From positions 1-55,810 of IMG/VR virus record IMGVR_UViG_3300023184_005760: a stretch of 55,810 nucleotides of DNA. The stretch is one strand, 5' to 3'. Origin of the DNA: a virus (taxonomy: Duplodnaviria; Caudoviricetes). A program made the translations under genes and the position numbers. Positions 1,804-55,810 of the stretch are shown here, piece by piece; position 1 is the first letter of the stretch; each line of letters begins with the position of its first letter. The notes below the pieces were generated by a model. That model was not told the origin of the DNA and made no database searches. It saw only the letters and a list, made by a program, of their open reading frames with translations.

Positions 1804-2541
1804 TTGAGTAGACAGCGATCAGCGAAAGCACAAAAAAGAATGAATCAGGCAGTAGAAAACACCATCAGCTTTAGTCCAGCACCTAGAACGGCACAGCGCC
1901 GCATAGACTTGATCCCTCGCACACGAAATCAAGAACGCTTGGTCATGGCACTACAAGACCCTGACGCCCACATAGTAGTTACAGTAGGTCCCGCAGGTAC
2001 GGGCAAAACTTATCTAGCCATGCAGGCGGCCGTTAAGGCACTGAAGGAAGGTGATTGTGACAGGATCGTAATGACACGCCCAGCAGTGGGTGTGGAGGGA
2101 GAAAGTCATGGTTTCCTCCCGGGCAACTTGGTTGCCAAAATGGAACCGTGGACTCGTCCTTTACTAGATGTCATGCGCGAATATTATCGTGCCCAGGACA
2201 TTGTAGCCCTTATAGAAGATCAGGTAATTGACATTTCGCCACTCTCAATGATGCGAGGTCGAACCTTTAAAAATTCATGGATTATTGCCGACGAAATGCA
2301 AAACGCAACCCCGGCACAGGCCAAGATGTTGATGACTCGAATAGGGACGAATAGTAAGATTGTAATGACCGGAGACGTAGAACAAACCGACATTAAACAT
2401 GGCAGTAATGCTCTTGTCGATTTGTGCGAAAGGTTACAGAAGGGAGGTGGTGTTGAAGGTCTTGTAGTTTGTCCGTTTGAAAATCGCGACATACAAAGAC
2501 ATCCAATTATTAGTAAAATATTGGAAATTTACAAAGATTGA
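1804..2541 (+). CDS. phoH: PhoH-family ATPase
   Basis: GPAGTGKT, RPAV, GFLPG, MRGRTF, IIADEMQN, GDVEQTD and QRHP motifs. Confidence 0.95.
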   Translation: MSRQRSAKAQKRMNQAVENTISFSPAPRTAQRRIDLIPRTRNQERLVMALQDPDAHIVVTVGPAGTGKTYLAMQAAVKALKEGDCDRIVMTRPAVGVEGESHGFLPGNLVAKMEPWTRPLLDVMREYYRAQDIVALIEDQVIDISPLSMMRGRTFKNSWIIADEMQNATPAQAKMLMTRIGTNSKIVMTGDVEQTDIKHGSNALVDLCERLQKGGGVEGLVVCPFENRDIQRHPIISKILEIYKD

Positions 2542-18790: not shown

Positions 18791-18794
18791 GTTG

Positions 18795-20520: not shown

Positions 20521-20525
20521 GCTTT

Positions 20526-20554: not shown

Positions 20555-20564
20555 GTAGTACTTT

Positions 20565-20879
20565 TTACTTAAACAGGATCAAGGCCATGAACCCGGCTTG
20601 CAGTATAAATCCAAACCCAATTGTGATGATGTTCAGCATGTCTTTTAGTACCACTGCTCGCATGAACAGCAGGACCAGACCGCTCCACAAGAACAAGATG
20701 ATGTCCAGACTTGGAGTTCGGTCGCTGAGTCCGGTCATGAGTGCCAGGAAACTGGGCAGGGTTGCACAATGCAACACAATGGCCGCTAACCAACCTAGTG
20801 TGTCTGCTGAAAGTCTTGCTAGGCTGTTGGTGATATAATCACGAACAGCAACAATTGCAACAGGAAAATTAAAAGGCAT
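20565..20879 (-). CDS. Small membrane protein (about 3 TM helices)
   Basis: Three hydrophobic segments; GGAG RBS before MPFNF. Confidence 0.65.
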   Translation of the reverse strand: MPFNFPVAIVAVRDYITNSLARLSADTLGWLAAIVLHCATLPSFLALMTGLSDRTPSLDIILFLWSGLVLLFMRAVVLKDMLNIITIGFGFILQAGFMALILFK

Positions 20880-21666: not shown

Positions 21667-21708
21667 AATGAGTCCTTTTTACTATTTACCCTATTTACGT
21701 TAAAATAG

Positions 21709-21776
21709 TATAAATATAGGTGTAGTTCGCGGAACGGGAATTCCCAACTACTCTAACGCTTGAAGGAGCAATCAGC
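21709..21776 (+). promoter_or_regulatory. TATAAATA late promoter and structured leader of the homing endonuclease gene
   Basis: TATAAATA 21709-21716; GTAGTT/AACTAC and GGAA/TTCC stems; short GCT/AGC stem over AAGGAG. Confidence 0.6.
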
Positions 21777-23088: not shown

Positions 23089-23865
23089 TTACTCAGGGAT
23101 TCGGCACACAGGAATTGGTTCCATCTTGTGCAGGTTTCTGGCTCGAATTGCTCGATACCGCTTGAGGTTGGCTTTTTCAGTCGCGGTCATGGTTTGATCT
23201 CCAGACTGGTCCAGCCACATGGCACGTTCCAGATCAGGGTAACTCATGCCCAGTTGCCCTTCGTCTGTACGTCCGTCATCCCAGAGCCCGTCGGTGGGTT
23301 CTGCGTCAATTATTTCTTGTGGCAAACCAAACTCACGGCCCATGTCCCACACGTCTGTTTTCATGCAGTCGCCAATGGGGCTAATATCCACGCCACCGTC
23401 ACCATACTTGGTAAAAAAGCCCACACCAAAGTCTTCCACGCGGTTGCCTGTGCCCACCACAATACCGCCATAACTTTGAGCAATTTGATACAGGGTCATC
23501 ATGCGCAGTCTAGCACGTGAGTTGGCAAATGCCAGAGTTATGTCTGTGCTGTCTCTGCAAATGGGTTCCAGTTTCTTTTCAAATGCTGTGAACACTGAGG
23601 TCATGTCCATGCTCACATAGGTGACATTTTTGTAACGCTCCAGCAACCAGTCGGCCTGCATACTACTGCGATTGTCCAGTTTGCGATTTTGGCGTATGGG
23701 CATCTGCACCACAATGGTTTGGAGCCCTGTTTCGGCGCATAAAGCGGATACCACTGAGGAGTCAATGCCTCCTGAAATACCCACCACCAAAGTGTCGATT
23801 TTGGCACTCCGGGCATAGGACTTGATCCACTTGACGATGTGTTTGATTCTTTGTTTGTGTGTCAT
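23089..23865 (-). CDS. nadE: NH3-dependent NAD+ synthetase
   Basis: VGISGGIDS, NSRARLRM, GTGN..E, FFTKYGDG and PTDGLW motifs; start probably MTHKQ. Confidence 0.93.
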   Translation of the reverse strand: MTHKQRIKHIVKWIKSYARSAKIDTLVVGISGGIDSSVVSALCAETGLQTIVVQMPIRQNRKLDNRSSMQADWLLERYKNVTYVSMDMTSVFTAFEKKLEPICRDSTDITLAFANSRARLRMMTLYQIAQSYGGIVVGTGNRVEDFGVGFFTKYGDGGVDISPIGDCMKTDVWDMGREFGLPQEIIDAEPTDGLWDDGRTDEGQLGMSYPDLERAMWLDQSGDQTMTATEKANLKRYRAIRARNLHKMEPIPVCRIPE

Positions 23866-24386
23866 ATGTTTAAATTTGGTTTGGGCATGCTTTTTAATTG
23901 CTTCCACATGTTTGCTTTTTCTTGGCATTTTTTCTCTAACTTACGATATCTCTCTCCTAACTTACGCAATTGATCCCATTCTTTTTCAAGGTCGGGATTG
24001 GGTGTCAAGATGTTGAGACGTTCTTCAACCTTCTCCATCCAGGTCTTGAGACTTTTATCATTGATCAAGAGATCAGCATTCTCACCTTTGATATGGACTG
24101 TGTTGTTGGGCTGGATGTTTTGTCCAGCAAAACTGTAACTGCCAGCAGTGGTATTGTTGGTCCAAATAGGGCTACTAATATTGATACCGGTGGCACTCAT
24201 TGTACCGCCACCAATTGTGACATTGGGCACAGCACCGTAAAAAGGATGACTAGTTCCAGTACCACCACTACTAACGGTGAGTGGCTCAATAGTATCGGCA
24301 GTCCACTTGAAGTGAGTATCTTCTAAAGATTTTGTGTTGAGTTGTTCGAGCAACTCGCTAATGTCTTTGATTTCTGTAACAGCCAT
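23862..24386 (-). CDS. Hypothetical phage protein
   Basis: Low-complexity middle, helical C-terminus (VEERLNILTPNPDLEKEW); start probably MAVTE. Confidence 0.65.
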   Translation of the reverse strand: MAVTEIKDISELLEQLNTKSLEDTHFKWTADTIEPLTVSSGGTGTSHPFYGAVPNVTIGGGTMSATGINISSPIWTNNTTAGSYSFAGQNIQPNNTVHIKGENADLLINDKSLKTWMEKVEERLNILTPNPDLEKEWDQLRKLGERYRKLEKKCQEKANMWKQLKSMPKPNLNI

Positions 24387-26740: not shown

Positions 26741-26770
26741 ACTGGCTCCTAGTTGTGTTAATATGTGTAT

Positions 26771-26799
26771 ATTATAGCAGTTCGGCGATTATTGGTCAA
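26771..26799 (-). promoter_or_regulatory. Sigma70 early promoter
   Basis: TTGACC-17-TATAAT with extended TG. Confidence 0.85.
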
Positions 26800-28811: not shown

Positions 28812-28836
28812 AGGCTCCAGTAGTTAATATGTGTAT

Positions 28837-28865
28837 ATTATAGTAGATTTATTGAATTTGGTCAA
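28837..28865 (-). promoter_or_regulatory. Sigma70 early promoter
   Basis: TTGACC-17-TATAAT. Confidence 0.8.
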
Positions 28866-31831: not shown

Positions 31832-32135
31832 TTTGATACTTTGTTGTCATTAAATCGTCAGTACAACCAGTGCAGGTCTTTTGTTGGCACATGGTATCAG
31901 TCTTGGGGGACCAATCAGATAATACATTGCCAAGATAGGTGTTCTTGCATTCACCGGCCCAGATATCAAAGTTTTTGTCAATGTAAAATCTGGTGCGGCC
32001 AACATCACAACGATATCCGTGCCAGGCAGTCAATCCTTGATTGTGCATCCAGTTGGCATACACAAGATGTTCCTGGCCTTGCTCATCAGTGGCCCGGCAA
32101 TTGTAATTTTGATGTTTAATTAGATTCGATGACAT
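31821..32135 (-). CDS. Stand-alone SPASM/twitch-like Fe-S domain protein
   Basis: CDVG...YID...ECKN.YLGNV...CQQKTCTGC. Confidence 0.65.
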   Translation of the reverse strand: MSSNLIKHQNYNCRATDEQGQEHLVYANWMHNQGLTAWHGYRCDVGRTRFYIDKNFDIWAGECKNTYLGNVLSDWSPKTDTMCQQKTCTGCTDDLMTTKYQNDI

Positions 32136-32682
32136 TGATACTGTGGCTCACTTGATGTTGTTGGAAAATTTGTGTGTATTTGTCAAAGTTGACCCGATTC
32201 CATGGCTCGTCCATGAGGTTCACATGACAACTTTTTTCGGGACGAGCCATGACTTGGTTTACTGCCAGAACAGTTTCAAAAAATTTGTCTTCATTCCAGA
32301 ATTCTGAATGCACACTAAAACTAATTGCATCTACCAATTGGGCCAGACGCAGATAATAGTCAGTGCTGGCACTGCCATTGGTGGTGACTAAAATTTGTCC
32401 TAGGTCAACATCGCTGTTGCGTAAAAATTCAATCAAGGGCAAGAAACTCCGATTGGCAGTGACTTCGCCCCCAGTGAATGTGATTTTGTAAGGCAAGCCC
32501 ATGTGCTTTGTTTTGTGATAGAAACTGGACCAGACCTGTTTGAGACGGTCAAGATCAGGGTGAGCACTTGTGTCATCATGCAGTTCTGGTGGACAATAAG
32601 AACAGGCATAGTTACAACGTGATCCAATCATCCAGGTCATGCTCACCATTGGTACTATGGGTTCTACCCGAATAATTTTCAT
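32116..32682 (-). CDS. Short radical SAM core protein
   Basis: CNYACSYC, FTGGE, TTNGS, FSVHSE. Confidence 0.85.
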   Translation of the reverse strand: MKIIRVEPIVPMVSMTWMIGSRCNYACSYCPPELHDDTSAHPDLDRLKQVWSSFYHKTKHMGLPYKITFTGGEVTANRSFLPLIEFLRNSDVDLGQILVTTNGSASTDYYLRLAQLVDAISFSVHSEFWNEDKFFETVLAVNQVMARPEKSCHVNLMDEPWNRVNFDKYTQIFQQHQVSHSINVIESN

Positions 32683-33813: not shown

Positions 33814-34020
33814 TTACCAATCACCATTGTCAACCCAACCACGTATGGTCAAGAACAACCAACTCACTGACCAGGTGCGTTCATTGGGACTGGGCCATCC
33901 ATCGTTGGGCTCACGTCTAGCACGTGGCGTCAATCTCCAATGCAGTGGATTCAGTGTAAAGATAACACTGATCCCACTGTACCGGAACCAATTCAAATAT
34001 CTACTGTTTTCAGTTTCCAT
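33814..34020 (-). CDS. Trp-rich small protein
   Basis: 68 aa ORF overlapping the phosphoesterase end. Confidence 0.55.
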   Translation of the reverse strand: METENSRYLNWFRYSGISVIFTLNPLHWRLTPRARREPNDGWPSPNERTWSVSWLFLTIRGWVDNGDW

Positions 34021-34847
34021 TGTTCCGCCTGTTGTTCATAGCCATCATAGCCACGTGGGTTGCACATCACACGGCATGAGCCGATCATGTAGTCAAACTC
34101 GTGATGAGTATGTCCATGTGTCCACAATTTGATTTGTGGACGATCAAGAATAAACTGGTCCAGGTCTGAACTGTAAGCACCATTCACCATGGTTTGATCT
34201 GCGTACTGCGGGTGAGTTGATGCTTTGCTAGGCGAGTGATGACCAACTACCACGTACTTAGCAGTGGGGTTGGCCGCAATCGACTCTTCAACAAATTTCA
34301 ACATGGCCCGGTGTTCTTCCACACTGGCTTCGGGACTGAATCGGCCCTCACGTGTGTGGCGCTTGCCTTCCGAGTCTTTGTAATGCACAGGATAGCGACT
34401 GTCCCGGATGATTCTAAAATCATTCATGTAACTGCGAATGCGATACAAGGTATCTGGATCTTCGCGATTCATGTCAGTCCATAGCGTACCACACAAGAAC
34501 GTGGTGTCACCAATAGTGATTGATTCTTTTTCTAGAATGTGCAAATTGGGCAAGTAGCCCAGCACATCTTTTAGGTGTGCAAAGGCAGTGGCAAAGTCGC
34601 CATTGTAGTATTCATGATTGCCCACAATGTAGATCACGTGTGGAAAACGATCATGACAGCGTTGGAAGAATTCGTGAAAGCGATTGCTACGATATTCTGG
34701 ACCCATCACACCATAGGGATCACGTTGGGCCAGGTCATAGGCCACACAGATATCGCCGCCCAAGATCAGTACTTGGGCACCTTGATCATTTTCAAAATCA
34801 AGGTCTCCGAATTCAAGATGCACGTCCGATACTAGAGAAATTTTCAC
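33993..34847 (-). CDS. Calcineurin-like metallophosphoesterase
   Basis: SDVHLE, GGDI, GNHEYY, HHSP, HGHTH, NPRGY. Confidence 0.9.
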   Translation of the reverse strand: MKISLVSDVHLEFGDLDFENDQGAQVLILGGDICVAYDLAQRDPYGVMGPEYRSNRFHEFFQRCHDRFPHVIYIVGNHEYYNGDFATAFAHLKDVLGYLPNLHILEKESITIGDTTFLCGTLWTDMNREDPDTLYRIRSYMNDFRIIRDSRYPVHYKDSEGKRHTREGRFSPEASVEEHRAMLKFVEESIAANPTAKYVVVGHHSPSKASTHPQYADQTMVNGAYSSDLDQFILDRPQIKLWTHGHTHHEFDYMIGSCRVMCNPRGYDGYEQQAEQWKLKTVDI

Positions 34848-40401: not shown

Positions 40402-40821
40402 TCATCCGTAAATCCAACCAAAATTTTTAATTTTGTGTATCCAGGTGAACACCGGCACTGAAAATTCCAGGCGATAAACGCCATTCCAGCCCAGGTATCC
40501 CTGTCCTGGCAGTGGAGATGTCCGGTTGGAATAATGAGCAGGATATTCCGGATAATACATTCCGGCCCAGACAAACTTGGAATCTGAGATCCCAAAGAAA
40601 CTGATCGATTTTACAATCACTGCGGTGTCAGGATCATGATCCTGTTTTTCAAAATGTTCCACTGAAAGATACCCACTGTCTACGGCATCAAACTCAAAAC
40701 TAAAGTCAGTTTCTGTGATCAGTTTCAGCAGTTGTCCTTGTCCGTTGGCGTCTATGATCACCCAAGGTTGCCCCACAGGCTCAAGAGTCACACGCATTTT
40801 CACCGGGTATTCAGTAGGCAT
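40402..40821 (-). CDS. Hypothetical protein coupled to a radical SAM gene
   Basis: YLGWNG.YRLEF.VPVFTWIH. Confidence 0.65.
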   Translation of the reverse strand: MPTEYPVKMRVTLEPVGQPWVIIDANGQGQLLKLITETDFSFEFDAVDSGYLSVEHFEKQDHDPDTAVIVKSISFFGISDSKFVWAGMYYPEYPAHYSNRTSPLPGQGYLGWNGVYRLEFSVPVFTWIHKIKNFGWIYG

Positions 40822-42112
40822 ACTGTGTCCATATTTGAGTTAGTTCAGGATATAATGATCTAGCATCATATCCATAAACCTGATCCCACTTGCGACAGTG
40901 TTCCACCATGAGTTTCAATTGTGCATCTGCATCTGGTGGTTGATCAGTTGACAACAACTGCAAACACATTTCGGCCTGACGTTTGATTGCCACTTGAAAA
41001 TTGTGAGGGTCATTGGCATTGAAATCATCTGTGGCATTGATTGAATTCAATTGATCAATCAACTGCTGGTATTCAACAGCATACTGCTGTTTGACTGCTG
41101 ACGGCAGATTCACAGCATATAAAAATTTTGGATCGTAGCACAAATTGGATCTAACCAATAACTCATGCTCCAGAGCATACTTCAACAGTGTGTGGTAGTA
41201 GCCTATTGACAGCAAACTGGGTGCCGAACGCAGGGTCACTGTGATATTGGACTTGTTGCACAAATCTCGATAACTTTGGATATTTTTTAATACCTGGGCT
41301 GTGTTGGTGCCTTGCCTTTGATATGCGTTATGATCTGTAACAGTTTCAATGCTGATTTCAATTCCAACCCGTTTGAATTGTTTCAACTTGTGGATCAGGT
41401 CAGGTCGGAACACTGTGCCATTGGTCACAAAACTAAAACACAAATCAAACTTTTTGTGTGCAATCATGGTGTCCACCAAGTTTTCAAGGCGATCGGTCAA
41501 CAGGGTTTCACCACCCATGAAGTGAATGTTGTTTAAATTTTGAATAGTCAATATCTGTTGAACAAAATTGTTCCAGACTCGAGGATCACGAGTCCAATCC
41601 ACTCCCAGATATTTTTTGCTTTCTGTGATTCCCCATTGTACCTGTTGCGACGCAATGGTACTGCTGGCATTGGGCTGACACATTTTGCAGGCTAGATTAC
41701 AAAAATTGCCAAGATTGACGTGCAAGTCAATAGGCATGGTATCAGTAACACCGTTATTGCTGTACTCAAAGTGCTTGCGACTGGGACTTTGCAGATAACT
41801 TTGATCAAAGGCCTGTGCAAAAATCACACTCTTTTGATTTTCCTTGATGCGTTTGCTGTAACTTCCGTGTTGCTCTTCTAGATAACAAACCTTGCAAGGA
41901 GATATTTTTTGTATGCCTTGGATGCCTTGTCTAAACTCACGCACAGGTTCACTGTTGTACCATTGCTCAATGGTCATGTTGGAGATGTTGTACTGCCGAT
42001 CAGTGGCCGGATACAGCCGATGGTCCTCGCTACAACATATACCAAAACTACCGTCCCAGTATATTTGTAGACCGTACCAAGGTACATTGCAAAAAATATT
42101 TTGATTAGGCAC
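40811..42112 (-). CDS. Radical SAM protein with N-terminal twitch-like domain
   Basis: CNVPW...ICC...CKVC; CNLACKMC; FMGGE; TNGT. Confidence 0.88.
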
Positions 42113-42698
42113 GTCGATCGAGTATTTTATCCACTAGTCCATAATCCAAGGCTTCTTGAGCTGACATAAAGAAATCACGTTCCATGTCTGCTGATAATTG
42201 CTCAAAGGTCTTGCCCTTGCTGTTGTGCTTGACATAGATCGTGGTCAGATACTCTTTCATCTTTTGGATTTCTCTTGCTTGGATTTGGATGTCTGTGGCT
42301 TGTCCATGAGCACCGCCCGATGGTTGGTGAATCATGTGTCGGGCATGGGGCAGGATCATGCGCTTGCCCGCGGCTCCTGCTGTACTTAGCAGACTTCCCA
42401 TGGAGCAGGCCTGTCCCATCACAATGGTCTGCACATCACACTTGATAAACTGCATGGTATCATAGATAGCCATGCCTGCTGTTACTGATCCACCCGGGCT
42501 GTTAATATATAGACTGATATCTTTGTCTGGATTATCACTTTCCAAAAACAACATTTGTGCTACCAGCAAACTGGCTGTGTGTTCCGATACTTCTGTGTCC
42601 AGCATGATCACACGGTCTTTGAGCAATCGGCTGTAGATGTCATAACTGCGTTCACCTTTTGAGGTTTGTTCAAGCACAATTGGCACTAGATTTGGCAT
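42105..42698 (-). CDS. clpP: ClpP protease proteolytic subunit
   Basis: [30 protein letters not shown]; AAGGAG RBS before MPNLV. Confidence 0.95.
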
Positions 42699-42749
42699 GG
42701 GGTCTCCTTGTTGAAAGCATAAGTATAACAATATTCTTGGAAAAAAGCA

Positions 42750-44761: not shown

Positions 44762-45349
44762 TTATTTACCATGACTCATTACACTAATATCATCGCAGAT
44801 GCCCAGTGCTAGGGCTTCTGATGCACTCAGCCAAACGTCTTGTGGTGGCAACAAGTTGTTGCGTATTTCTTCCCGGCCCAGTCCTGTACACAATTCATAG
44901 TGTGCAATCATTCGAGCCTGGGTGAGTTCAAACTCACGCATGGTAGCAAACAACTCATGTGCCTTGCCTTCATTGTACCAGGAGAATTGATGGCTTAGAA
45001 TTGAAGTATTGGGTGTGAGCACTCGGCGTCCGTGAGTGCCAGAAATAAAGATCAACAATCCTGCTGATGCAATGGTTCCCAACCCCACAGTTTTAACTGG
45101 AATCTGCGAACTCATCATCACATCAATCAAGGCAAATGCTGAACCCATGTCTCCACCATTGGAGCAGATCATCAGCAACAATTCTTTTTTCTTTTTTTTG
45201 GTCACATAGTTTTCGTAAAGTAACCATTCCACAACTGGTTTGATACTTTCATCATCCACGTCGCCCATGAAAACATACATGCCAGTGTCGGCAAGTGCTT
45301 GGGCGTGAGTTTGTTCTGTTTGGGTAGTTTCAATTATTGGCATGATCAT
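44762..45349 (-). CDS. Second, divergent ClpP-like protease
   Basis: ICSNGGD, IASAG, LSHQ, DVWLSASEALALGICD. Confidence 0.85.
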   Translation of the reverse strand: MIMPIIETTQTEQTHAQALADTGMYVFMGDVDDESIKPVVEWLLYENYVTKKKKKELLLMICSNGGDMGSAFALIDVMMSSQIPVKTVGLGTIASAGLLIFISGTHGRRVLTPNTSILSHQFSWYNEGKAHELFATMREFELTQARMIAHYELCTGLGREEIRNNLLPPQDVWLSASEALALGICDDISVMSHGK

Positions 45350-47137: not shown

Positions 47138-47321
47138 AGTCTTCTTGCCTTTCTAAGGGGTGACGTGGGACACGGGCCTGGGTTTCTAACCAATTGATCA
47201 TAGCCACTTGATTGGCACAATCGTTGGGCATGGCTGTAACACTGGCGGGAGGATTGTAGTTTACAGTTGATGCACAACCAGTCACTAACAATAGAGGTAA
47301 CAGTCGACGAATCATGCCCAT
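47070..47321 (-). CDS. Putative lipoprotein
   Basis: Lipobox VTGC; DCAN.VAMI. Confidence 0.6.
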   Translation of the reverse strand: MGMIRRLLPLLLVTGCASTVNYNPPASVTAMPNDCANQVAMINWLETQARVPRHPLERQEDYETSRASFRHRIWHVRYVCRPV

Positions 47322-47731
47322 AACTCCAGAGCGTTGTACAACTGATCAGTAGGTACACCATGTTGGGTGTAACCTTCTAGCACTAGATCAAAATAACCTT
47401 GTCCGGGCAAGCCATCTGGCTGACCTGGATTCATAAAGTAAACAATGGCATCTTTTATTTCGCCGTCATGTTCCACAGACATCTCAATACGATTGTAGTA
47501 GTGTGGAAAGCCTTCTAGTGCATCCAGTTTCTGTAAACATTCTTCAGTGATTGACCACAGAACTCCGTCCACATAACAGTCAGGCACCACTACCACATCA
47601 GCATGAATGGCAAATCGAAACGCACTGTCTAGCAGTCGTGCCGGGCCAAGACTTTGTGCTTGAGGACACCGATACGCCATCTCATGCAAGTTGGTGTTCA
47701 TGCCGTAGCCAAAGTAAAGTTTTGTGTTCAT
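47312..47731 (-). CDS. Gamma-glutamylcyclotransferase (AIG2-like)
   Basis: LYFGYGMN...MAYRCP...GVLW...LDALEGFP..Y. Confidence 0.85.
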   Translation of the reverse strand: MNTKLYFGYGMNTNLHEMAYRCPQAQSLGPARLLDSAFRFAIHADVVVVPDCYVDGVLWSITEECLQKLDALEGFPHYYNRIEMSVEHDGEIKDAIVYFMNPGQPDGLPGQGYFDLVLEGYTQHGVPTDQLYNALELWA

Positions 47732-47737
47732 AGCCGT

Positions 47738-47766
47738 ATTATAGCAAATGATGAATTATCGGTCAA
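47738..47766 (-). promoter_or_regulatory. Sigma70 early promoter, leaderless
   Basis: TTGACC-17-TATAAT with ATG 6 nt downstream. Confidence 0.85.
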
Positions 47767-47799
47767 GAGAAAGCCCCAAATTTTGGGGCCTTGCAAAAG

Positions 47800-48089: not shown

Positions 48090-48220
48090 TGGGTTCTCCT
48101 ATAAAGCGAGTTTACTATAGGACCCGGCCTATCCAGCGTCCTATGTAGTATTATATATGATTTCTTGACCGCAAATCAAGCAATTTTCCTAGTGAGCGAT
48201 CACTAATCAATAAATATTAT

Positions 48221-49738
48221 ATGACCACATCATTTTGCCACAAAATTCTTGTGTTGGGCAACAATTCACTAATCACTAATCAAGAAGTCGATACTTTGGC
48301 ATCACAGGATCAAACTTGTAATTTTGGTCTGATCACTGATCCAGAATTCATACCCGATTTGCCGGGCTATTATCATACTACCTGTGTGGACCTATCAGTG
48401 GGTGAGATTGCCAGGATGGCACAATATTATGACAGCATAGTGTTGTCCTCCCAGACCGCCGATCAATGGTCCCATCCCACATTATTTTCTGCCACTGTAA
48501 AATTGTTAGAAGATCTGCAGGATCTAGGCCATAATGTTATCATGCAAAGTGCATCAACATCATCAAGAGTGATTTTTAAAAAAATTCTAGAAACCAACAA
48601 GAGTTTTTGCATTTATCCTTTTATGAATTTACAAATTCGCGATGGTGAGAACATGTTGTTGTGCTCAAGATCTCTCACGCCAGTGACCAAAATTCATAAT
48701 CTTGGGAACTGGCAAACCAATGCAGATTATCAACATATTAGAAAACAAATGCTTGCAGGTAACAAATTGCCTAACTTTTGTGGCTTTTGTTACAACATTG
48801 AAAACAAAGGCGGCAAGCCTGCAAGAATATTTGACACTTTAGAATGGGCCCAGCGATTGAATTTACAAAGCCTTGAAGATGCTGAAAAAATCACATCACC
48901 AATGTACTACGCAATCAGGCCCAGCAACAAATGCAATTTGATGTGTAGGTCCTGTGTGCCAAGAGATAGTCATCTGATAGATCAAGAATTCAAACGCATC
49001 AAGATTAAATTGGACAAAGGTTCTCAAGCCGCCGATGGCTATACAGGATTTGAAATTGTAAATTTTGACAATTTAAAACGCTTGTATGTGGCAGGGGGTG
49101 AACCCACTGTGATGCCCGAGTTGTATGATTTTTTACGCAAGTGCATAAGTCAACAACACACGGATTTTGAATTCATGATCAACACCAATGCAGTAAAACT
49201 CAGCGATACCCTGTTGGATTTGTTCAGTCATTTTTCAAATCTAGGATTCAGTACAAGTCTAGATGGTGTGGAACTGGTAAACGATTACATTAGATATCCA
49301 TCAAAATTTGAAAGTGTAATTGACAATATCAAAAAACTCCAAGCAAACGGGCACAAGGTATCATTTATTTCAGTTGTATCTATTTATAATGTGGCCAGTT
49401 TACACAGTCTATTGGAATTCCAAGACAAAGAATTCCCCGGCTCACCGGTACAATTGAATTTTGACAGTTTTTGTAATGATATTCAATCTGCCTTTAATCA
49501 TCCCAACTGTCAGTTGGTACTAGATTCACTGGAGCGATGCAAAAAAACCAAAGTGTATTTCAACTACAGCCGGGGTACCAAAAGTATCATTGACCAATTG
49601 CACCAACACTACAGCAATGCTCCGGCAGTTAACATGCATAAACTCAAAGAATTTTTTGACTTTAATAGAAAACTAGATCAGTCTAGAAATCAAAAACTAG
49701 CCGATTACATTCCAGAATTGGCAGTTTTTGAATGCTAA
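48221..49738 (+). CDS. Radical SAM protein with twitch-like domain and N-terminal extension
   Basis: CIYPF...CGFC; CNLMCRSC; VAGGEP; NTNA; TAAATA-TTAT-ATG. Confidence 0.88.
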   Translation: MTTSFCHKILVLGNNSLITNQEVDTLASQDQTCNFGLITDPEFIPDLPGYYHTTCVDLSVGEIARMAQYYDSIVLSSQTADQWSHPTLFSATVKLLEDLQDLGHNVIMQSASTSSRVIFKKILETNKSFCIYPFMNLQIRDGENMLLCSRSLTPVTKIHNLGNWQTNADYQHIRKQMLAGNKLPNFCGFCYNIENKGGKPARIFDTLEWAQRLNLQSLEDAEKITSPMYYAIRPSNKCNLMCRSCVPRDSHLIDQEFKRIKIKLDKGSQAADGYTGFEIVNFDNLKRLYVAGGEPTVMPELYDFLRKCISQQHTDFEFMINTNAVKLSDTLLDLFSHFSNLGFSTSLDGVELVNDYIRYPSKFESVIDNIKKLQANGHKVSFISVVSIYNVASLHSLLEFQDKEFPGSPVQLNFDSFCNDIQSAFNHPNCQLVLDSLERCKKTKVYFNYSRGTKSIIDQLHQHYSNAPAVNMHKLKEFFDFNRKLDQSRNQKLADYIPELAVFEC

Positions 49739-49775
49739 ATCACACAGTGAGTTAAATACAACAAAGGAGACACAG

Positions 49776-50396
49776 ATGTTTGATATTTTTAAAGGCGTAG
49801 ATCGGGTCATGATGGCCAAATTGGTTGCATTACATATCTTCGTGATCGTAATCAGCAATGCTCTAGTTTCAATTCCGGTTGAGATCATGGGTGTGAAATT
49901 GACATGGGCCGCATTTACCTATCCCCTGGTAATTTTGGCAACAGATTTGACAGTACGATTGATTGGTAAAGGCATTGCTCGAGCAACCATTGCGGCAGCC
50001 TATCCACTTGCCATCATTGGCAGTATTGCTGTTGTGCTGTTAGAAGGCGCACCACAAAGTGTAGCATTACGAATTGGTTTTGGATCCGCCACAGCATACC
50101 TAATCGGTTGTTTGCTGGACGTTTATGTGTTCCAATATGTTCGCGAAAAGTTCACACAACAATGGTGGGCAGCTCCGGCACTCAGCATGGTTGTTGCTAA
50201 CTTCATCGACAGTTACGTATTCTTCAGTATTGCTTTCCAAGGTGGTGCAAACGAGTACATGGCCGCTAACTGGCCTGAGATTGCACTGAGCCAAAGTCTA
50301 TTGAAGATTTTAGTTGGCTTTGTTGTGTTCTTGCCAGCATATGGGCTATTACTAAACTTTATGAAGAAGCGTTTGGGCAACACCGATCAGGGTTAA
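49776..50396 (+). CDS. VUT-family (YhhQ-like) queuosine precursor transporter
   Basis: ISNALV...TWAAFTYP...ATDLTVR...LDVYVF...IDS..FF.IAF; multi-TM; AAGGAG RBS. Confidence 0.85.
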   Translation: MFDIFKGVDRVMMAKLVALHIFVIVISNALVSIPVEIMGVKLTWAAFTYPLVILATDLTVRLIGKGIARATIAAAYPLAIIGSIAVVLLEGAPQSVALRIGFGSATAYLIGCLLDVYVFQYVREKFTQQWWAAPALSMVVANFIDSYVFFSIAFQGGANEYMAANWPEIALSQSLLKILVGFVVFLPAYGLLLNFMKKRLGNTDQG

Positions 50397-50416
50397 ATAC
50401 TCTATAGGAGATCGTT

Positions 50417-50727: not shown

Positions 50728-51273
50728 ATGGCAGAACAAAAACAACTATCACGTAGTGAACGTGAAGCCGTTATCAAAGACAAAGCAGGATGGGTAATCG
50801 TTGTATTTGCCGCATTCTTGGCCATTAACACATACATGGGCAACGGCAACTCGGGTCGAATCTTAAACGACACAATCGAAGCCAACAACACCTGGGCATT
50901 TTATCAAGCAAAATCGATCAAAGGCACCTTGGCTGAAATGGCCTTGGATGATGCCATGGCTCGCAAGGATGTGAACAAGGTACATTCACTCAGCAAGAAG
51001 ATTGCCAGGTACGAATCAGATCCTGCCACAGGCGAAGGCAAGAAAGAACTAATGGCCAAGGCACGTGCATTAGAAGCAGATCGTGCTGTGGCAAAACAAC
51101 GTAGCCCTTGGTATACGTTTGCTGGCAGTCTATTCCAGATTGCCATTGTGTTATTATCGGCTAGTATATTGGCAGTTAACAATCGCTTGTACACAGCCAG
51201 TTTGTATGTTGGTGGCATCGCAATGGTACTGATGAGTCAGGCTATCTGGCTTTGGATCCCCACACTATTTTAA
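50728..51273 (+). CDS. Membrane protein, DUF4337-like
   Basis: NNTWAFYQAKSIK...FQIAIVL.SASI; three TM segments. Confidence 0.75.
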   Translation: MAEQKQLSRSEREAVIKDKAGWVIVVFAAFLAINTYMGNGNSGRILNDTIEANNTWAFYQAKSIKGTLAEMALDDAMARKDVNKVHSLSKKIARYESDPATGEGKKELMAKARALEADRAVAKQRSPWYTFAGSLFQIAIVLLSASILAVNNRLYTASLYVGGIAMVLMSQAIWLWIPTLF

Positions 51274-51341
51274 ACCCAGTTTAATCTAGAGCAAGACTCC
51301 TGTAAATACTTCAAGCCCTGACCACAAGGGCATGAGGTATA

Positions 51342-51596
51342 ATGAAAAAATATGGAGCCATCTACCGAACCGTAATCTTAGTATTATTGCTAATACTATG
51401 TGCTTCTGCGATGGTATCAAGTTCACCCATGTACGGTGGCGATCGACCCAGTGTAGCACGAGAACTACCTGCTCGAGAACGAGAAGTCAGACTCAATCAC
51501 GGCGTTGCTGAATGTGTTAGAACGGCTTGGATAGGCAATGTCAACAACAGAACATTAATCTGTGTTGAGTATCGCTTGAAGAAAGAGGTCAAGTAA
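51342..51596 (+). CDS. Small membrane-anchored or secreted protein
   Basis: N-terminal hydrophobic segment; C-terminal Cys pair. Confidence 0.55.
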   Translation: MKKYGAIYRTVILVLLLILCASAMVSSSPMYGGDRPSVARELPAREREVRLNHGVAECVRTAWIGNVNNRTLICVEYRLKKEVK

Positions 51597-52375
51597 TGGA
51601 TCCCATAACCCTCTTTGCTCTAGCCAATGGCGCTGTGGCCGCTGTTAAAAAAGGCTGTCAACTATACAAAGACATCAAGGGTGCTGCCGGTGACGTCAAG
51701 GCTGTGCTCAAGGATCTCGACGAGCAGTTTCACGGTGCATACGAAGCCAAAGGTAAAACTGCCACTGTTGAACAACGCAATCAATTTGTAAAAGAAAAAA
51801 ATCGCATCATTGAACTGAACAAACGTGATGGCGAGACTGTGGGCATCTACACTGAACTAGGTGAGCACCTTGGCACCTACTACGACAACTACTACAAGTG
51901 CATGGCCATCTTTGAAGAAGAAGAAAAGCACAGCCAACACGAAATCTATGCGGGTGATGCCAGCCTGGGCAAACGTGCCTTGCAACGTGTGCTCATGCGC
52001 AAACAACTGGAACAGATGGGCACCGAACTGCGTGAAATCATGGTGTATCAAAGCCCTCCCGAACTGGGTGCGCTACACACCGAAGTTGAAGAAATGATGA
52101 AGGTCATGGGCAAGCAACAAAAAATTCTTGTTGCTCAGCAGATGAAGGAAGATCACATTCGGGCTATCAGGAAACGCCGACGCCTAGATGCCATATGGGC
52201 CAATGCCATATGGGGAGTGATGGGTATTATTATTGCGGCATCAATTGGTCTGATGTTTGCTTGGGTGATACAGGATAGAATTCAAAAGTATCCTCAACTG
52301 GGTACAGGTATAATACCCAAGTCAGAAGCACAACGAAGAGCCGAAGCAGAGCCTAAAAAGTATACAGGCAGATAA
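51596..52375 (+). CDS. Coiled-coil protein with a C-terminal TM helix
   Basis: MDPITLFA...; 259 aa. Confidence 0.7.
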   Translation: MDPITLFALANGAVAAVKKGCQLYKDIKGAAGDVKAVLKDLDEQFHGAYEAKGKTATVEQRNQFVKEKNRIIELNKRDGETVGIYTELGEHLGTYYDNYYKCMAIFEEEEKHSQHEIYAGDASLGKRALQRVLMRKQLEQMGTELREIMVYQSPPELGALHTEVEEMMKVMGKQQKILVAQQMKEDHIRAIRKRRRLDAIWANAIWGVMGIIIAASIGLMFAWVIQDRIQKYPQLGTGIIPKSEAQRRAEAEPKKYTGR

Positions 52376-52516
52376 TCAATGTCTGTGTGTTATCCAATAG
52401 GCAAATCCAAGAGCAACGGCTCCTGAAAATACCAAAATCAACAGAGTAACACCCAGCACCTTACCCACTGAGTTCTCTGCGATTAGGTCGTTTAGTTCTT
52501 CAAAGATACTGCTCAT
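52376..52516 (-). CDS. Small membrane protein (46 aa)
   Basis: Not in the ORF track: MSSIFEELNDLIAENSVGKVLGVTLLILVFSGAVALGFAYWITHRH; TAAATA 6 nt upstream. Confidence 0.55.
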   Translation of the reverse strand: MSSIFEELNDLIAENSVGKVLGVTLLILVFSGAVALGFAYWITHRH

Positions 52517-52575
52517 AGAAAGTATTTAAAATGCCTTGTATAAAACAAAAGCACATACATATGAGTAAATAAACT

Positions 52576-53286
52576 ATGACTGAACTAATTGCAACCCTGG
52601 TAATGACACACATTACTATCATTTGTGTCACGCTGTATTTGCATCGCGGCCAGGCCCACCGAGGCATTGAATTTCATCCTGTGCTAGAACACTTCATGAG
52701 ATTTTGGCTGTGGCTAACCACAGGCATGGTAACTAAACAGTGGGTGGCCATACACCGCAAGCATCACAGATTCAGTGACCAGGCGGGAGATCCACACTCA
52801 CCACATGTGTATGGAATTAAGAGAGTTTTCTTCAAAGGAGCATGGTTATATCATGCGGCATCAAAAGATTCGGTCATGGTTGACACATACGGTCGTGGTA
52901 CTCCTGCTGATTGGATGGAGCTTCACGTATACCAGCCTCACAGTAGACTTGGCATTGGCATTCTCTTTGTGCTCGACACCTTGATATTTGGTTGGTGGGG
53001 GCCTTTGATCTGGGGCATACAAATGATATGGATTCCGTTTTGGGCCGCAGGTGTTATTAATGGCGTAGGTCATTGGATAGGATATAGAAATGGACATACT
53101 AAAGATCATAGTCGTAATATTAGTCCTTGGGGCATTGTCATTGGTGGCGAAGAGTTGCATAACAACCACCACCTGGACCCAGCGAGTCCCAAACTCAGCA
53201 AGAATTGGTTTGAGTTTGATATAGGCTGGATGTGGCTGGGCTTGTTTAGGCTGCTAGGACTTGCCCGATTGCGTAATCAGGTGTAG
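52576..53286 (+). CDS. Membrane fatty acid desaturase (delta-9-like)
   Basis: His boxes LHRGQAH, HRKHH...DPHSP and GEELHNNHH; FDIGW. Confidence 0.92.
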   Translation: MTELIATLVMTHITIICVTLYLHRGQAHRGIEFHPVLEHFMRFWLWLTTGMVTKQWVAIHRKHHRFSDQAGDPHSPHVYGIKRVFFKGAWLYHAASKDSVMVDTYGRGTPADWMELHVYQPHSRLGIGILFVLDTLIFGWWGPLIWGIQMIWIPFWAAGVINGVGHWIGYRNGHTKDHSRNISPWGIVIGGEELHNNHHLDPASPKLSKNWFEFDIGWMWLGLFRLLGLARLRNQV

Positions 53287-53885
53287 TCTTGCTTTAGATC
53301 AGGATCAATCAACTGACCTTGCATCAAGTATATAGGGCTCTTGCGATAAATCCACACGTCATGGAATGGATCAGTCAATATCTTCAAACACCAAACCAAG
53401 GCAACTCGACGACTTTGTATAGCAGTGAGTTGAATCATTCTAAACACAACACCTGCCAAACCCAACCATAACCAGCCCATGCCCACACGATTCACAAATG
53501 TCATAGGATCGTTGTCGGGAATCAGCAGGTTCATCAACTCAGCATCAAAGAAGGCCAGCAAAGGCACAGCTACAAAACAGGCCATCAGCACTCGCTTGCG
53601 TTTGAGGTTGAATCCAATCTTGATTTTTTCCTTGTATTCAAACGTGGCATTGTTGTACTCGTCATAGCCGTGCGGCTCGAAGAAAAAGTGTCCGGCCTGA
53701 CGAGTGGTCATGGCAATCAACCAGGCCACATAGGCACTCACAACAGGATCAATGAACAAGTAAACATAAGCAATCAAAAAACTTGTGGCCGATATCAAGT
53801 GCAAAAATTGGTTGATTCTGCTGTGATGATAATAACGATGGTCGTCCCAGCGTTGTTCGCGTAGTGTTTCTAGTATGTCTTTCAT
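53277..53885 (-). CDS. Membrane protein, Mpo1/DUF962-like
   Basis: YYHHSRINQFLH...RQAGHFFFE; several TM segments. Confidence 0.55.
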   Translation of the reverse strand: MKDILETLREQRWDDHRYYHHSRINQFLHLISATSFLIAYVYLFIDPVVSAYVAWLIAMTTRQAGHFFFEPHGYDEYNNATFEYKEKIKIGFNLKRKRVLMACFVAVPLLAFFDAELMNLLIPDNDPMTFVNRVGMGWLWLGLAGVVFRMIQLTAIQSRRVALVWCLKILTDPFHDVWIYRKSPIYLMQGQLIDPDLKQDYT

Positions 53886-53903
53886 GATTTTCCTTTGGTT
53901 AAT

Positions 53904-54914
53904 TTATTTGGTCCACAAGTGGTTGGGAGTGAGGTTGTCTCGGAAGATTTCCCATGCTCTCTCCCAACTCCAACGTTGACTACCTTCCCATACTTTCTGT
54001 CTATTTAAAAATAAACAGTCAGTAACTGCCTGTTTTAGATCCGGATTCATACAGCCAGTGATGCCTTCATCAATCACATCTTCGGGCCCTTGAACAGGAT
54101 AAGCCGCCACTGGAGTTCCGCAGGCCATGGCTTCAATCATCACAATACCAAAGGTTTCCCATTCACTAGGAAACACAAACACTTCTGCGTTGGCATAATA
54201 ACGTGCTAGATCCTCGCCTGTTTTGAATCCTGTAAAATGCACATCAGGATATTTTTTTTGGTAGGTTTCTAGCATGGGACCATCGCCTACCATGACTTTG
54301 AGATAGCCAGGATAATCCATTTCAAAGAATGCTTCTAGATTCTTTTCTTTGCTTACTCTGCTCACACACAAGAGATATCTGCTGGTTGTTTTTACCCTGT
54401 GTCCTGGATGGAATACGTCACGGTCAACACCGCGGGTCCAGGGAATAACTTCTCCATTGAACCCATGTGCTTGCAATTCTCGAACCATGGAGTCTGTTGT
54501 GGTTAGAACCTTGCCACTATGTTTATGAAACCATCGTACAAAACGCCAGGTAAGAGACTCAGGTATTCCAAATAACTTTTTGAGCCCTTCAGGAAATTTA
54601 GTGTGATAAGCGGTATTGTGGCGAATATTACCCAGTGAAAGATATGCTCTAGCCCACAGACCCAAAGGACCTTCTGTGGCGATGTGGATATAATCCGGAG
54701 CAATCTCCTCAATCTTCGCGCCCAAGTTCCTGGGATAGGCAATCTTGACTTCGTGGTAGCGAGGGCAATTAATGTAGCGGAACCTCCCGGGATCAATATA
54801 ATCAACATGATAACCATCCAGTACCGCACAAGTCTCGATGTTCTTGTAAGTGGTGACCACCCCATTAATTTGATCCGGCAAGTTGTCTGTTATTATCAAT
54901 ATCTTCTTGGTCAT
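53904..54914 (-). CDS. agt: GT4 glycolipid synthase (Agt-like diacylglycerol glycosyltransferase)
   Basis: ITD..P.QINGVV.T, IHIATEGPLG, YHTKFPE, WTRGVD, EKNLEAF, VGDGP, FVFPS..ETFG.V.IEAMACG.PVAAYPV.GP; directly downstream of plcP. Confidence 0.8.
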   Translation of the reverse strand: MTKKILIITDNLPDQINGVVTTYKNIETCAVLDGYHVDYIDPGRFRYINCPRYHEVKIAYPRNLGAKIEEIAPDYIHIATEGPLGLWARAYLSLGNIRHNTAYHTKFPEGLKKLFGIPESLTWRFVRWFHKHSGKVLTTTDSMVRELQAHGFNGEVIPWTRGVDRDVFHPGHRVKTTSRYLLCVSRVSKEKNLEAFFEMDYPGYLKVMVGDGPMLETYQKKYPDVHFTGFKTGEDLARYYANAEVFVFPSEWETFGIVMIEAMACGTPVAAYPVQGPEDVIDEGITGCMNPDLKQAVTDCLFLNRQKVWEGSQRWSWERAWEIFRDNLTPNHLWTK

Positions 54915-55659
54915 TTTTTCGTGTCCATGTTACAATTTCCCAGCGTCCGTCATGATGTTCTACCAATGCCGTACACGATTCTACCCAGTCACCATCGTTC
55001 ATGTAGGTCACACCATCAATCTCTTTTATTTCTGCGTGATGGATGTGACCGCACACCACGCCATCAAATCCTCTTTTCTTGCAGTAGGCCGCAAGATTCC
55101 TTTCAAAGTGAAACATGAAGTCAATGGCTTTTTTGACCCTATGCTTAAGAAACTGGCTAAGACTCCAGTAACCAAAACCCATACGATGGCGGATCCAATT
55201 AAATCTACTATTAAGTCCCAAGATAAAGTCATATGCTCGGTCTCCCAAAAAACTCAGCCACGGTGCCAGTCGGGTGATGCCATCAAACAAGTCACCGTGT
55301 ACCACAAGGTAGTGTCGGCCGTCTGCACCTATATGTTCACATTGATTGCAAATTTCTACTGTGCCGAATGAGGCTGCATATGGTATCATCGGACGCAGGA
55401 ATTCGTCATGATTTCCAGCCACGTATACAACCCTAGTGCCACGTTTAGCGTGACCAAGAACGCGACGAACGACATTGGTGTGGCTTTGTTTCCAACGCCA
55501 CTTGTTTTGTTGTATCTTCCACGCATCAATGATATCACCAACTAGGTATAGGGTATCGCATGAGTTGTGCTTTAAAAAATTGTTTAGTTCTTCTGCCTTG
55601 CAGTCTCTTGTGCCAAGGTGCACATCACTGATAAAAATACTGCGATACGTTTTCTGCAT
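54865..55659 (-). CDS. plcP: PlcP-like phospholipase C (LpxH-related metallophosphoesterase)
   Basis: YRSIFISDVHLGT.DC.A, LYLVGDIID.W, GNHDE, HGD.FD, CGHIH, YMNDGDWVESCTALVE. Confidence 0.82.
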   Translation of the reverse strand: MQKTYRSIFISDVHLGTRDCKAEELNNFLKHNSCDTLYLVGDIIDAWKIQQNKWRWKQSHTNVVRRVLGHAKRGTRVVYVAGNHDEFLRPMIPYAASFGTVEICNQCEHIGADGRHYLVVHGDLFDGITRLAPWLSFLGDRAYDFILGLNSRFNWIRHRMGFGYWSLSQFLKHRVKKAIDFMFHFERNLAAYCKKRGFDGVVCGHIHHAEIKEIDGVTYMNDGDWVESCTALVEHHDGRWEIVTWTRKNDQEDIDNNRQLAGSN

Positions 55660-55663
55660 CTAG

Positions 55664-55669
55664 TATTTA
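55664..55669 (-). promoter_or_regulatory. Late-type promoter TAAATA with a leaderless start for plcP
   Basis: TAAATA-CTAG-ATG. Confidence 0.6.
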
Positions 55670-55684
55670 GGCATATTTGTGTTA

Positions 55685-55810
55685 CTATTTTGTTACAAAC
55701 ATTTGATCCACAAAGTCTAACAATAGAGTATGATGTTGGCCTCTGTGATATCGACCACGCATCCATGAGTAACTGTCGTACCAGAATTGTTCACTTTCAG
55801 GATGACATCC
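55685..55810 (-). CDS. 3' end of a gene entering from the right edge, GATase-like (HPE motif)
   Basis: GCHPESEQFWYDSYSWMRGRYH...FVTK*. Confidence 0.45.
   Translation of the reverse strand, partial: GCHPESEQFWYDSYSWMRGRYHRGQHHTLLLDFVDQMFVTK

Follow-up and report, generated by a model that had tools for sequence, protein, structure and literature searches.

The closest described counterparts of the locus considered here are bacterial PlcP and Agt proteins of membrane lipid remodelling. In Pseudomonas aeruginosa, the names PlcP and Agt1 have been given to PA3219 and PA3218, respectively (PMC8528852). The two genes lie in that order and overlap or abut, and plcP has a Pho box upstream (PMC8528852), seen here as CTGTCAC-agtc-GTTTCAC. 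Expressed alone in Escherichia coli, Agt1 yields monoglucosyl-diacylglycerol (MGDG), and Agt2 yields glucuronosyl-diacylglycerol (GADG) (PMC8528852). The first PlcP described, SMc00171 of Sinorhizobium meliloti, is 46% identical to that of P. aeruginosa (PMC8528852) and has no adjacent glycosyltransferase of family GT4 in S. meliloti. A "type 2" plcP-agt neighbourhood was defined in the work on PlcP and Agt of SAR11 HTCC7211 and Phaeobacter MED193 (PMC4796936), and on the viral side pstS, phoA, and other genes of cyanophages are under host PhoBR control (PMC10976474). The stretch of DNA described here, 55,810 nucleotides (nt) of IMG/VR virus record IMGVR_UViG_3300023184_005760 (Caudoviricetes; the window), carries near its end a plcP gene and an agt-like GT4 gene that follow a Pho-box-like repeat and a TAAATA box. 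The elements of this locus, with predictions resting on open reading frames (ORFs) and on the searches named, are as follows.

53904..54914, minus strand: agt-like GT4 glycosyltransferase (predicted glycosyl-diacylglycerol synthase), 336 residues; ORF and Pfam
54865..55659, minus strand: plcP, PlcP-type metallophosphoesterase (predicted lipid-remodelling phospholipase C), 264 residues; ORF and Pfam Metallophos
55664..55669, minus strand: TAAATA box (-10-like element), separated by 11 nt from the repeat upstream and by 4 nt from the ATG (55657-55659)
55678..55699, minus strand: Pho-box-like tandem direct repeat tTGTAACa aaat aGTAACa with an 11-bp period; composite and matrix scans
55685..55810, minus strand: 3' end of the upstream gene (open-ended ORF), with its stop codon inside the repeat; matches positions 5782-5907 of the related contig L004

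The gene order is that of P. aeruginosa, with 58% identity for PlcP and 40% for the glycosyltransferase, and S. meliloti PlcP is 47% identical. The locus differs from that of P. aeruginosa in being phage-encoded, in having half-sites that are mostly GTAAC/GTAAT rather than GTCAT, and in a TAAATA -10 element that abuts the start codon. The arrangement is also that of the "type 2" neighbourhood of PMC4796936, the likeness being one of gene order. As in the cyanophages, phosphorus-stress genes of a phage are found with host-type Pho boxes, but the cargo here is lipid remodelling, the phage is a non-cyanobacterial jumbo phage from a lake, and the direct repeats of its Pho box follow the proteobacterial pattern. 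Overall, we consider it fairly probable that this is a jumbo-phage plcP-agt operon with a hybrid Pho box-TAAATA promoter shared with pstS, through which host PhoB would drive phosphorus mobilisation.

Architecture of the plcP Promoter

The sequence upstream of plcP reads tGTAAC-aaaata-GTAAC-acaaatatgcc-TAAATA-ctag-ATG and comprises a 25-nt gap and the end of the upstream gene. Its two direct repeats of ~7 nt with an 11-bp period have the form of a Pho box (consensus, CTGTCATNNNNCTGTCAT; PMC8528852). Such boxes overlap the -35 region (PMC2695467), and the gap between repeat and TAAATA at plcP places the repeat there, at the distance of ~10 bp before the -10 element. The composite of repeat and TAAATA occurs once in the window and in none of 100 shuffles; the repeat taken by itself, with TAAATA left out, does not exceed its reversed control in frequency and is of no use as a stand-alone pattern, and a scan of positions 51000-55810 for sigma-70 promoters and terminators gave nothing above shuffles.

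The same features recur among 61 distinct 70-nt plcP upstreams from relatives, many of which have entirely different flanking sequence. A loose form of the repeat is present in 43 of them, against a background of 0.75% of 33,782 windows and an average of 0.47 in shuffles, and a strict form in 25 (background 0.16%). TAAATA lies in the last 20 nt before the plcP start in 47 of the 61, at a distance of 4-7 nt from the ATG in most relatives, and is separated from the repeat by 11 nt in 15 upstreams and by 21-22 nt in 25. A transcript starting a few bases downstream of a TAAATA this near the ATG would have little or no leader, and a near-leaderless plcP mRNA is what we infer. A preliminary description of the window, made from its sequence alone, had spoken of a late-type leaderless start, and the sequence behind that phrase does exist (TAAATA at 55664-55669, 4 nt before the ATG).

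Across five phage records (1.28 Mb) the composite was found seven times, as compared with two for the reversed control, and six of the seven sites are directly before plcP or pstS. A strict GTAAY composite had overlooked GTCAC-type sites in four relatives, so the pattern was widened. The seventh site (G002:C1:8507-9023, which is L094 1027-1543, minus strand) precedes a 147-residue ORF of no known family that lies downstream of a 495-residue ORF; it could be a third regulon member or a chance match.

Relation to Phage pstS and to Host Pho Boxes

Phage pstS loci were collected by pattern (303 of 309 matches are relatives) and gave 79 usable upstreams, 50 of them distinct. The composite stands before pstS in 37 of the 50, followed by a ~25-nt leader with AAGGAG, so that a Pho box is found at a canonical Pho-regulon gene of the same phage genomes. 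In the complete 359.6-kb relative G001, for example, GTCACTGAATTGTCAC precedes pstS and is followed after 11 nt by TAAATA. A 22-column matrix built from phage pstS promoters only (27 distinct sites) ranked the plcP promoter of G001 first (23.3 bits) and its own pstS second (16.8), and in the window its best match was again the plcP promoter (22.3 bits; next 14.9). The pstS gene itself is directly upstream of plcP in 5 of 80 viral loci; here and below, counts out of 80 refer to the 80 best of at least 595 IMG/VR relatives, with PlcP identities of 81-98%.

Phage PstS scores 386 bits as a PstS equivalog (cut-off 339), and its identity to the proteins of Limnohabitans, Acidovorax, Hydrogenophaga, Polaromonas, and other Burkholderiales is 71-81%; the host is probably a member of the Comamonadaceae (Burkholderiales). 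The direct repeat is present in the 250 nt before pstS in 54 of 77 bacterial loci, mostly from Comamonadaceae and other Burkholderiales, against a background of 3.7%. A typical host pstS promoter has GTCACTGAATTGTCAT followed after ~10 nt by TAGAGT, TAAAGT is also seen as the -10 element of host pstS promoters, and the GTCAC-N6-GTCAT Pho box of Comamonadaceae pstS promoters matches the phage layout. The leaders in the window carry AGGAG-type ribosome-binding sites, which argue against the Bacteroidota label of the bin that holds a related contig (see below). The operon looks wired to host PhoB because the repeat is common to phage pstS and matches the Pho boxes of Comamonadaceae pstS. The architecture of the promoter and its sharing with pstS are direct observations; they point to phosphate-responsive (PhoB) control of plcP having been kept, with binding by PhoB itself inferred. 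The preliminary description had proposed that the pathway was rewired away from PhoB onto a plain late promoter, a proposal that is not supported, given the 11-bp-period repeat located 11 nt upstream of TAAATA and common to pstS.

A related arrangement is seen in the Pelagibacter phage Mosig, in which positions 4842-4991, between divergent pstS and "LpxH" (PlcP-family) genes, contain several (C/T)TTAAC units with 11-bp spacing (TTAAC-N6-TTAAC), and TAAATA-N5-ATG stands before plcP. The Mosig repeats fit the PyTTAAPyPy(T/A) type of Pho box quoted in PMC10976474. This suggests that the same Pho logic may be used by a marine T4-like pelagiphage.

In the window, TAAATA is not confined to plcP. Among its many sites are 48211-48216 (plus), 50394-50399 (plus), 52560-52575 (plus), 14835-14860 (minus), and 20947-21720 (minus), placed either directly before a start codon or ahead of a ~25-nt leader with AGGAG; TAAATA looks like a general, perhaps late-type, promoter core of this phage. 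A phage late promoter, the TAAATA box, could thus be all that drives the operon, which would then be made in every infection regardless of phosphate, the repeats being incidental or binding a phage factor. TAAATA resembles the late element (N)ATAAATA of T4 and cyanophages. Of the 89 ORF starts in the window, 13 have it in the 55 nt before them, as compared with ~1.6 expected from its 36 occurrences, the 13 including tail-fibre-region genes that lack the repeats, and T4-like Mosig likewise has it before plcP. Such a promoter acting alone is nevertheless an unlikely explanation. The repeat is specific to plcP and pstS in 1.28 Mb (six of the seven composites and the top two matrix matches in G001 described above), and its half-sites, its period, and its spacing from the -10 element agree with those of the Pho boxes of host-family pstS genes. 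Furthermore, no PhoB-type winged-helix DNA-binding domain (PF00486) was found in seven phage records, five of which are at least 96% complete.

We regard as equally improbable an explanation in which lipids are remodelled to change the membrane and not for phosphorus, whether for superinfection exclusion, altered receptor display, grazing resistance, or a membrane conditioned for the assembly or lysis of a very large virion. Lipid remodelling has been tied to phage attachment and predation (PMC9938194, PMC9457565), and a wider module for membrane lipids is suggested by the short DesA-family desaturase that flanks plcP in 31 of 80 loci. The promoter shared with pstS, however, would tie expression to phosphorus status, and pstS adjoins plcP in Mosig as well as in the five loci already mentioned. 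A membrane role is compatible with a phosphorus role, and both could hold.

Family Placement of PlcP

The 264-residue protein matches Pfam Metallophos with 47.6 bits (cut-off 21.5), and its translation contains both VAGNHDEF and MNDGDWVESCTAL (C-terminal motif NDGDWVESCTAL). Reference PlcPs were same-species orthologues taken from PLSDB, NZ_CP042268.1 for P. aeruginosa and CP090106.1 for S. meliloti. The first of these is a P. aeruginosa "plasmid" with the chromosomal cyaB/PA3218/PA3219 region, in which the plcP orthologue adjoins cyaB, and the second, from S. meliloti, has 3.72 Mb and bears the label pSymB. In both cases chromosomal sequence seems to have been mislabelled, which plasmid surveys should take into account. 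The S. meliloti gene of CP090106.1 we take to be SMc00171 from its position beside sinR/sinI-type genes, and this assignment also rests on the 47% identity between the two reference proteins (published, 46%). The similarity of the window PlcP to the PA3219 orthologue has an E value of 2e-97; that to S. meliloti PlcP extends over 243 residues (E 3e-85), with GNHDEFLR and GDWVESCTA identical. Sebastian et al. (2016; PMC4796936) used a BLASTP E value below 1e-40 against the MED193 PlcP, and strong similarity to characterised PlcPs is seen here with the P. aeruginosa and S. meliloti orthologues as references. When Mosig PlcP was used as bait for the PlcP of SAR11 HTCC7211, other taxa only were retrieved.

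Residues D12, H14, G41, D42, G82, N83, H84, D85, H121, G204, H205, and H207, and with them the sequence GNHD, are invariant in all 50 aligned PlcP-type sequences. In LpxH the third metallophosphoesterase motif is the GNRD variant. A search of PDB sequences with the window protein retrieved LpxH only, and weakly (E 3e-5); in three of the four solved LpxH chains matched, those for which alignments were available, aGNHDeflr of the window is aligned to hGNRDflvg. The statement in the preliminary description that LpxH proper has GNRD holds for these aligned chains.

A tree of 86 sequences was obtained by a quick IQ-TREE search and comprised 21 jumbo-phage proteins, those of Mosig and of Synechococcus phage S-SRM01, 17 from named bacteria or metagenome-assembled genomes (MAGs), 45 cluster representatives, and 3 of LpxH type. 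(i) All 21 jumbo-phage PlcPs form one clade (SH-aLRT 97), sister to a sequence from a Competibacteraceae MAG. (ii) This clade is nested in bacterial PlcPs that include both reference orthologues. (iii) True LpxH proteins are on long branches, with support of 99 and 95, apart from the PlcPs. The PlcPs of Mosig and S-SRM01 appear to be separate acquisitions because they are placed elsewhere in the tree.

The AlphaFold model of the window protein (pLDDT 87.1) comprises a metallophosphoesterase core and a long helical insertion at about residues 127-195, an organisation it shares with LpxH. The 23 best Foldseek matches of the model are LpxH structures, with 17-20% identity and TM scores of 0.52-0.57. 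That the protein is an LpxH acting in lipid A synthesis would agree with these matches, with source annotations (the JGI names many near-identical proteins LpxH, and the Mosig and S-SRM01 homologues are so annotated), and with KEGG-based virome surveys, lpxH being listed as a viral auxiliary metabolic gene (AMG) in PMC9611531 and PMC10653327. We consider it very improbable. The protein misses the cut-offs of both LpxH equivalog hidden Markov models in NCBIfam by a wide margin (NF003743, 49.3 against 134 bits; TIGR01854, 37.8 against 190.35), has GNHD rather than GNRD, and stands apart from LpxH in the tree, across a long branch with support. Two gammaproteobacterial MAGs have a true LpxH (290 and 253 bits) and a PlcP-like gene as separate paralogues, the nearest characterised relatives of the window protein are PlcPs, and its partner is an Agt-type GT4. 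Judged by sequence, the window protein has the LpxH fold but is a member of the PlcP family. Its predicted reaction is removal of the phosphorylated head group from membrane glycerophospholipids, which would leave diacylglycerol.

Many relatives (L021, L035, L051, L063, L086, and others) have a PlcP of 294 residues, with about 30 extra residues at the C terminus, and in these the GT4 gene begins ~20 nt after plcP with no overlap. The 264-residue form and the 50-nt overlap are restricted to the closest relatives of the window.

The GT4 Glycosyltransferase

The overlap between plcP and the GT4 gene (54865-54914) is the same in L004. The two-domain GT4 (GT-B) architecture is present, with Pfam Glyco_transf_4 at residues 45-166 (51.0 bits) and Glycos_transf_1 at residues 165-288 (88.6 bits), and the translation contains IHIATEGPLG and AYHTKFPEG. 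It also contains an E-x7-E stretch, ETFGIVMIE, a motif that is significant for GT4 enzymes. The similarity to P. aeruginosa Agt1 (the PA3218 orthologue) extends over 324 residues (E 8e-81), with HxATEGPLG and HTxFPE common to both. For comparison, Agt1 is 41% identical to the Agt of MED193 (PMC8528852), a value comparable to that between the window GT4 and Agt1. No NCBIfam equivalog reached its cut-off with the window GT4. The preliminary description had listed GNHD, the C-terminal motif, HIATEGPLG, and YHTKFPE and taken the pair for PlcP and Agt; the motifs are all in the translations, the two genes are real, overlapping, and on the minus strand, and the cut-offs, reference identities, and phylogeny against LpxH identify them as PlcP and an Agt-type GT4.

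A GT4 homologue with 36-47% identity directly follows plcP in 33 of 42 bacterial loci, including those of Croceicoccus, Kordiimonas, Roseomonas, and Neokomagataea, and 58 of the 80 viral loci have a GT4 gene immediately after plcP. Deposited phages have no close homologue of the GT4, the best match being 29% identical. From diacylglycerol, the enzyme is predicted to make monoglucosyl- and/or glucuronosyl-diacylglycerol. A nucleotide-sugar dehydrogenase-like gene (142 bits against a cut-off of 190; best matches, UDP-glucose 6-dehydrogenases) is a few kb upstream in the closest relatives (10 of 80 loci) and would fit a glucuronosyl donor for the GT4, although this is only a hint.

Viral Context and Distribution

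The window is rated 16% complete by CheckV and is a fragment of a lake jumbo phage of ~350-365 kb. It encodes tail-fibre proteins, a clamp loader, a DNA methyltransferase, PhoH, two ClpP proteins, several radical-SAM proteins, and a cell-wall hydrolase. Among 600 pattern matches in IMG/VR, 595 encode PlcP relatives, which places this plcP, at more than 80% identity, on at least 595 contigs, and on some viral contigs of 143-367 kb plcP is interior and accompanied by a terminase gene. Relatives of 349-367 kb are rated 96-100% complete, and the three examined have one TerL and one PhoH each; plcP is present in four of the five relatives that are at least 96% complete. The nearest cultured phages, judged by the clamp loader (50%), are Pseudomonas PA5oct-like jumbo phages, and INPHARED contains no near-identical DNA match to the window. 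The only PlcP homologues in deposited phages are those of Mosig (48%), S-SRM01 (36%), and two uncultured records, and neither Mosig nor S-SRM01 has a GT4 gene beside its plcP.

Contig L004 (NZ_JBBAKG010000110.1, 18.5 kb) is labelled as part of a Haliscomenobacter MAG. Its synteny with the window extends to either side of plcP, with 79-93% nucleotide identity and phage-type genes beyond, and its place in a Bacteroidota MAG is almost certainly a binning error, the contig being that of a phage. Cassettes have been gained and lost around plcP in L004, turnover that is typical of a flexible phage region. L101, a "Rickettsiales MAG" sequence with 93% identity to Mosig PlcP, looks like mis-binning of the same kind. 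The notion that the last 4 kb of the window are host DNA, from a chimeric assembly or a prophage flank, which could appeal to the position of the locus, where a 16%-complete contig ends, and to the 94%-identical copy in the "Haliscomenobacter" bin, can hardly be maintained, given the same genes in the interior of terminase-bearing viral contigs, the synteny of L004, and the mere 53-58% identity of the closest cellular PlcPs. The IMG/VR record, the interior positions in large viral contigs, and the near-complete relatives bear out the viral origin that had been assumed for the locus.

Genes Adjoining the Operon

Two further genes lie beyond the GT4 gene.

52576..53286, plus strand: short DesA-family membrane fatty-acid desaturase, 236 residues, convergent neighbour; NCBIfam NF049918
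53277..53885, minus strand: accessory membrane protein with a weak likeness to Mpo1 (DUF962); PF06127, 20.1 bits against a cut-off of 24

The desaturase scores 384.3 bits against the NF049918 cut-off of 400 and covers profile positions 11-241 of 385. The Mpo1-like gene is found in only 5 of 80 related loci and is absent from L004, and its membership in the plcP module is doubtful; a conserved plcP-agt-Mpo1 module was considered and dropped, there being no meaningful similarity to the Mpo1-like neighbour in P. aeruginosa. Homologues of the desaturase, Mpo1, orf259, and orf181 were found beside plcP in none of 42 bacterial loci. On the other side of plcP, the end of the upstream gene has 93% nucleotide identity to L004 5782-5907, which is the end of a 220-residue ORF with BPL_N/GATase matches. 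In L004 a DNA polymerase III alpha fragment, followed by a small Imm32-like ORF, is inserted between this upstream gene and plcP. Fragments of polymerase III alpha (NTPase and finger domains) are found as separate ORFs in L004 (5980-7656) and in the window (7860-8420, minus strand) and could represent a split or mobile polymerase gene.

Other Features of the Window

The remaining features noted in the window are listed below.

1804..2541, plus strand: phoH; PF02562, 225 bits
3692-4315: NT5C 5'-nucleotidase, sub-threshold (21.4 against 24.8 bits)
33993-34847: metallophosphoesterase; phrog_1649 (E 7e-53) and Pfam Metallophos
2645-3688 (minus), 32116-32682 (minus), 40811-42112 (minus), 48221-49738 (plus), and 49728-50396 (plus): radical-SAM/Vut_1 set
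18242-18859, 23089-23928, 42105-42731, 44762-45349, and 47312-47731, all minus strand: host-like genes

The phoH gene and two other phosphatases in the window had been put forward as companions of plcP in phosphorus scavenging; phoH and the metallophosphoesterase are confirmed, and the NT5C gene is seen only below threshold. Four radical-SAM proteins are encoded in 56 kb, one of them with a SPASM domain and one followed by a Vut_1 (vitamin/queuosine-precursor transporter-like) gene; the cassette at 48.2-50.4 kb is absent from L004. The host-like genes encode an Fe/Mn superoxide dismutase, an NAD synthetase, two ClpP-family proteases, and a gamma-glutamyl cyclotransferase-like protein. Strong sigma-70-like promoters (TTGACA ... 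TATAAT) are at 26741-26790, 28812-28860, 20521-20570, 8964-9260, and 47732-47780, all on the minus strand. In two cases a near-identical block, ctataatatacacatattaac, stands before AGGAG-type leaders, and these sites look like repeated early-promoter cassettes.

Discussion

In the explanation we favour, phosphate starvation of the host would lead phosphorylated host PhoB to bind the repeats and to switch on phage pstS and plcP-agt together. PlcP would strip phospho-head groups from phospholipids, and the GT4 would glycosylate the resulting diacylglycerol. In this way phospholipid phosphorus could be directed to replication of a very large genome with the membrane kept intact, and the lipid pathway would run mainly in phosphate-starved cells. 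The enzyme activities and the benefit to the phage are, in this scheme, extrapolated from family membership and promoter structure.

Several observations weigh against this explanation. With regard to the promoter, the repeat is missing in 18 of 61 distinct plcP upstreams, and TAAATA is a poor sigma-70 -10 hexamer that also precedes structural genes. The form of polymerase that reads it may be phage-modified and may not respond to PhoB. No obvious Pho box was seen directly upstream of host plcP in the four Comamonadaceae inspected, and the assignment of the host is based on PstS similarity alone. For phage genomes, bioinformatic prediction of Pho boxes was found to be unreliable by experiment (PMC10976474). 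With regard to the genes, all eight Comamonadaceae genomes examined have a PlcP homologue of their own, with 54-55% identity to that of the phage; the phage copy is old and divergent, not newly captured. The GT4 gene is missing in 22 of 80 viral loci, some of them incomplete, and is present in two of five near-complete phage genomes and missing in three; plcP is absent from G011, the sole relative with terminal repeats. The module is therefore dispensable. The tree comes from a quick search. In lake-water sequencing libraries, for which contigs only were used, the window's share is small (0.06-0.07), and in one lake metatranscriptome short contigs match the GT4 gene (255 nt, 2 differences) and plcP (81 nt, 0 differences); this is weak evidence for expression, as the library may contain DNA. 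Finally, a phospholipase C frees phospho-head groups and not free phosphate, and no dedicated phosphatase is linked to the plcP-agt operon.

As enzymes, the two proteins belong to known bacterial families and are not unusual in them; the novelty lies in their occurrence as a widespread phage operon that appears, with pstS, to be wired to the host Pho system. Full-text searches of openly accessible literature found no phage-encoded PlcP or PlcP-Agt pair, in agreement with the preliminary description, which knew of none. Because plcP is routinely mislabelled LpxH, virome surveys probably file it under lipopolysaccharide synthesis. The "lpxH" genes listed among lipopolysaccharide AMGs in two virome papers (PMC9611531 and PMC10653327) plausibly belong to the same PlcP family under the wrong name. 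We would give about an even chance to the broader proposal that a cosmopolitan lineage of lake jumbo phages has its own small Pho regulon (pstS and plcP, with or without agt), with a host Pho box fused to TAAATA and a leaderless plcP, that this would be the first virus-encoded phospholipid-to-glycolipid remodelling in bacteria, and that virome "lpxH" AMGs are largely misnamed plcP.

Phosphorus limits lakes and phage replication alike, and the known phage phosphorus genes (pstS, phoA, and phoH) serve uptake or have unknown targets. If the explanation favoured here is correct, PlcP-Agt would add the host membrane as a phosphorus store that the virus can tap on demand. The phosphorus in the phospholipids of a cell is of about the same order as that in its chromosome, a pool relevant to a virus that packs ~350 kb of DNA per capsid. 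The pstS and plcP promoters would also offer a small and testable example, from beyond the cyanophages, of how a phage makes use of a two-component regulator of its host, and their shared motif may be used to seek further members of viral Pho regulons.

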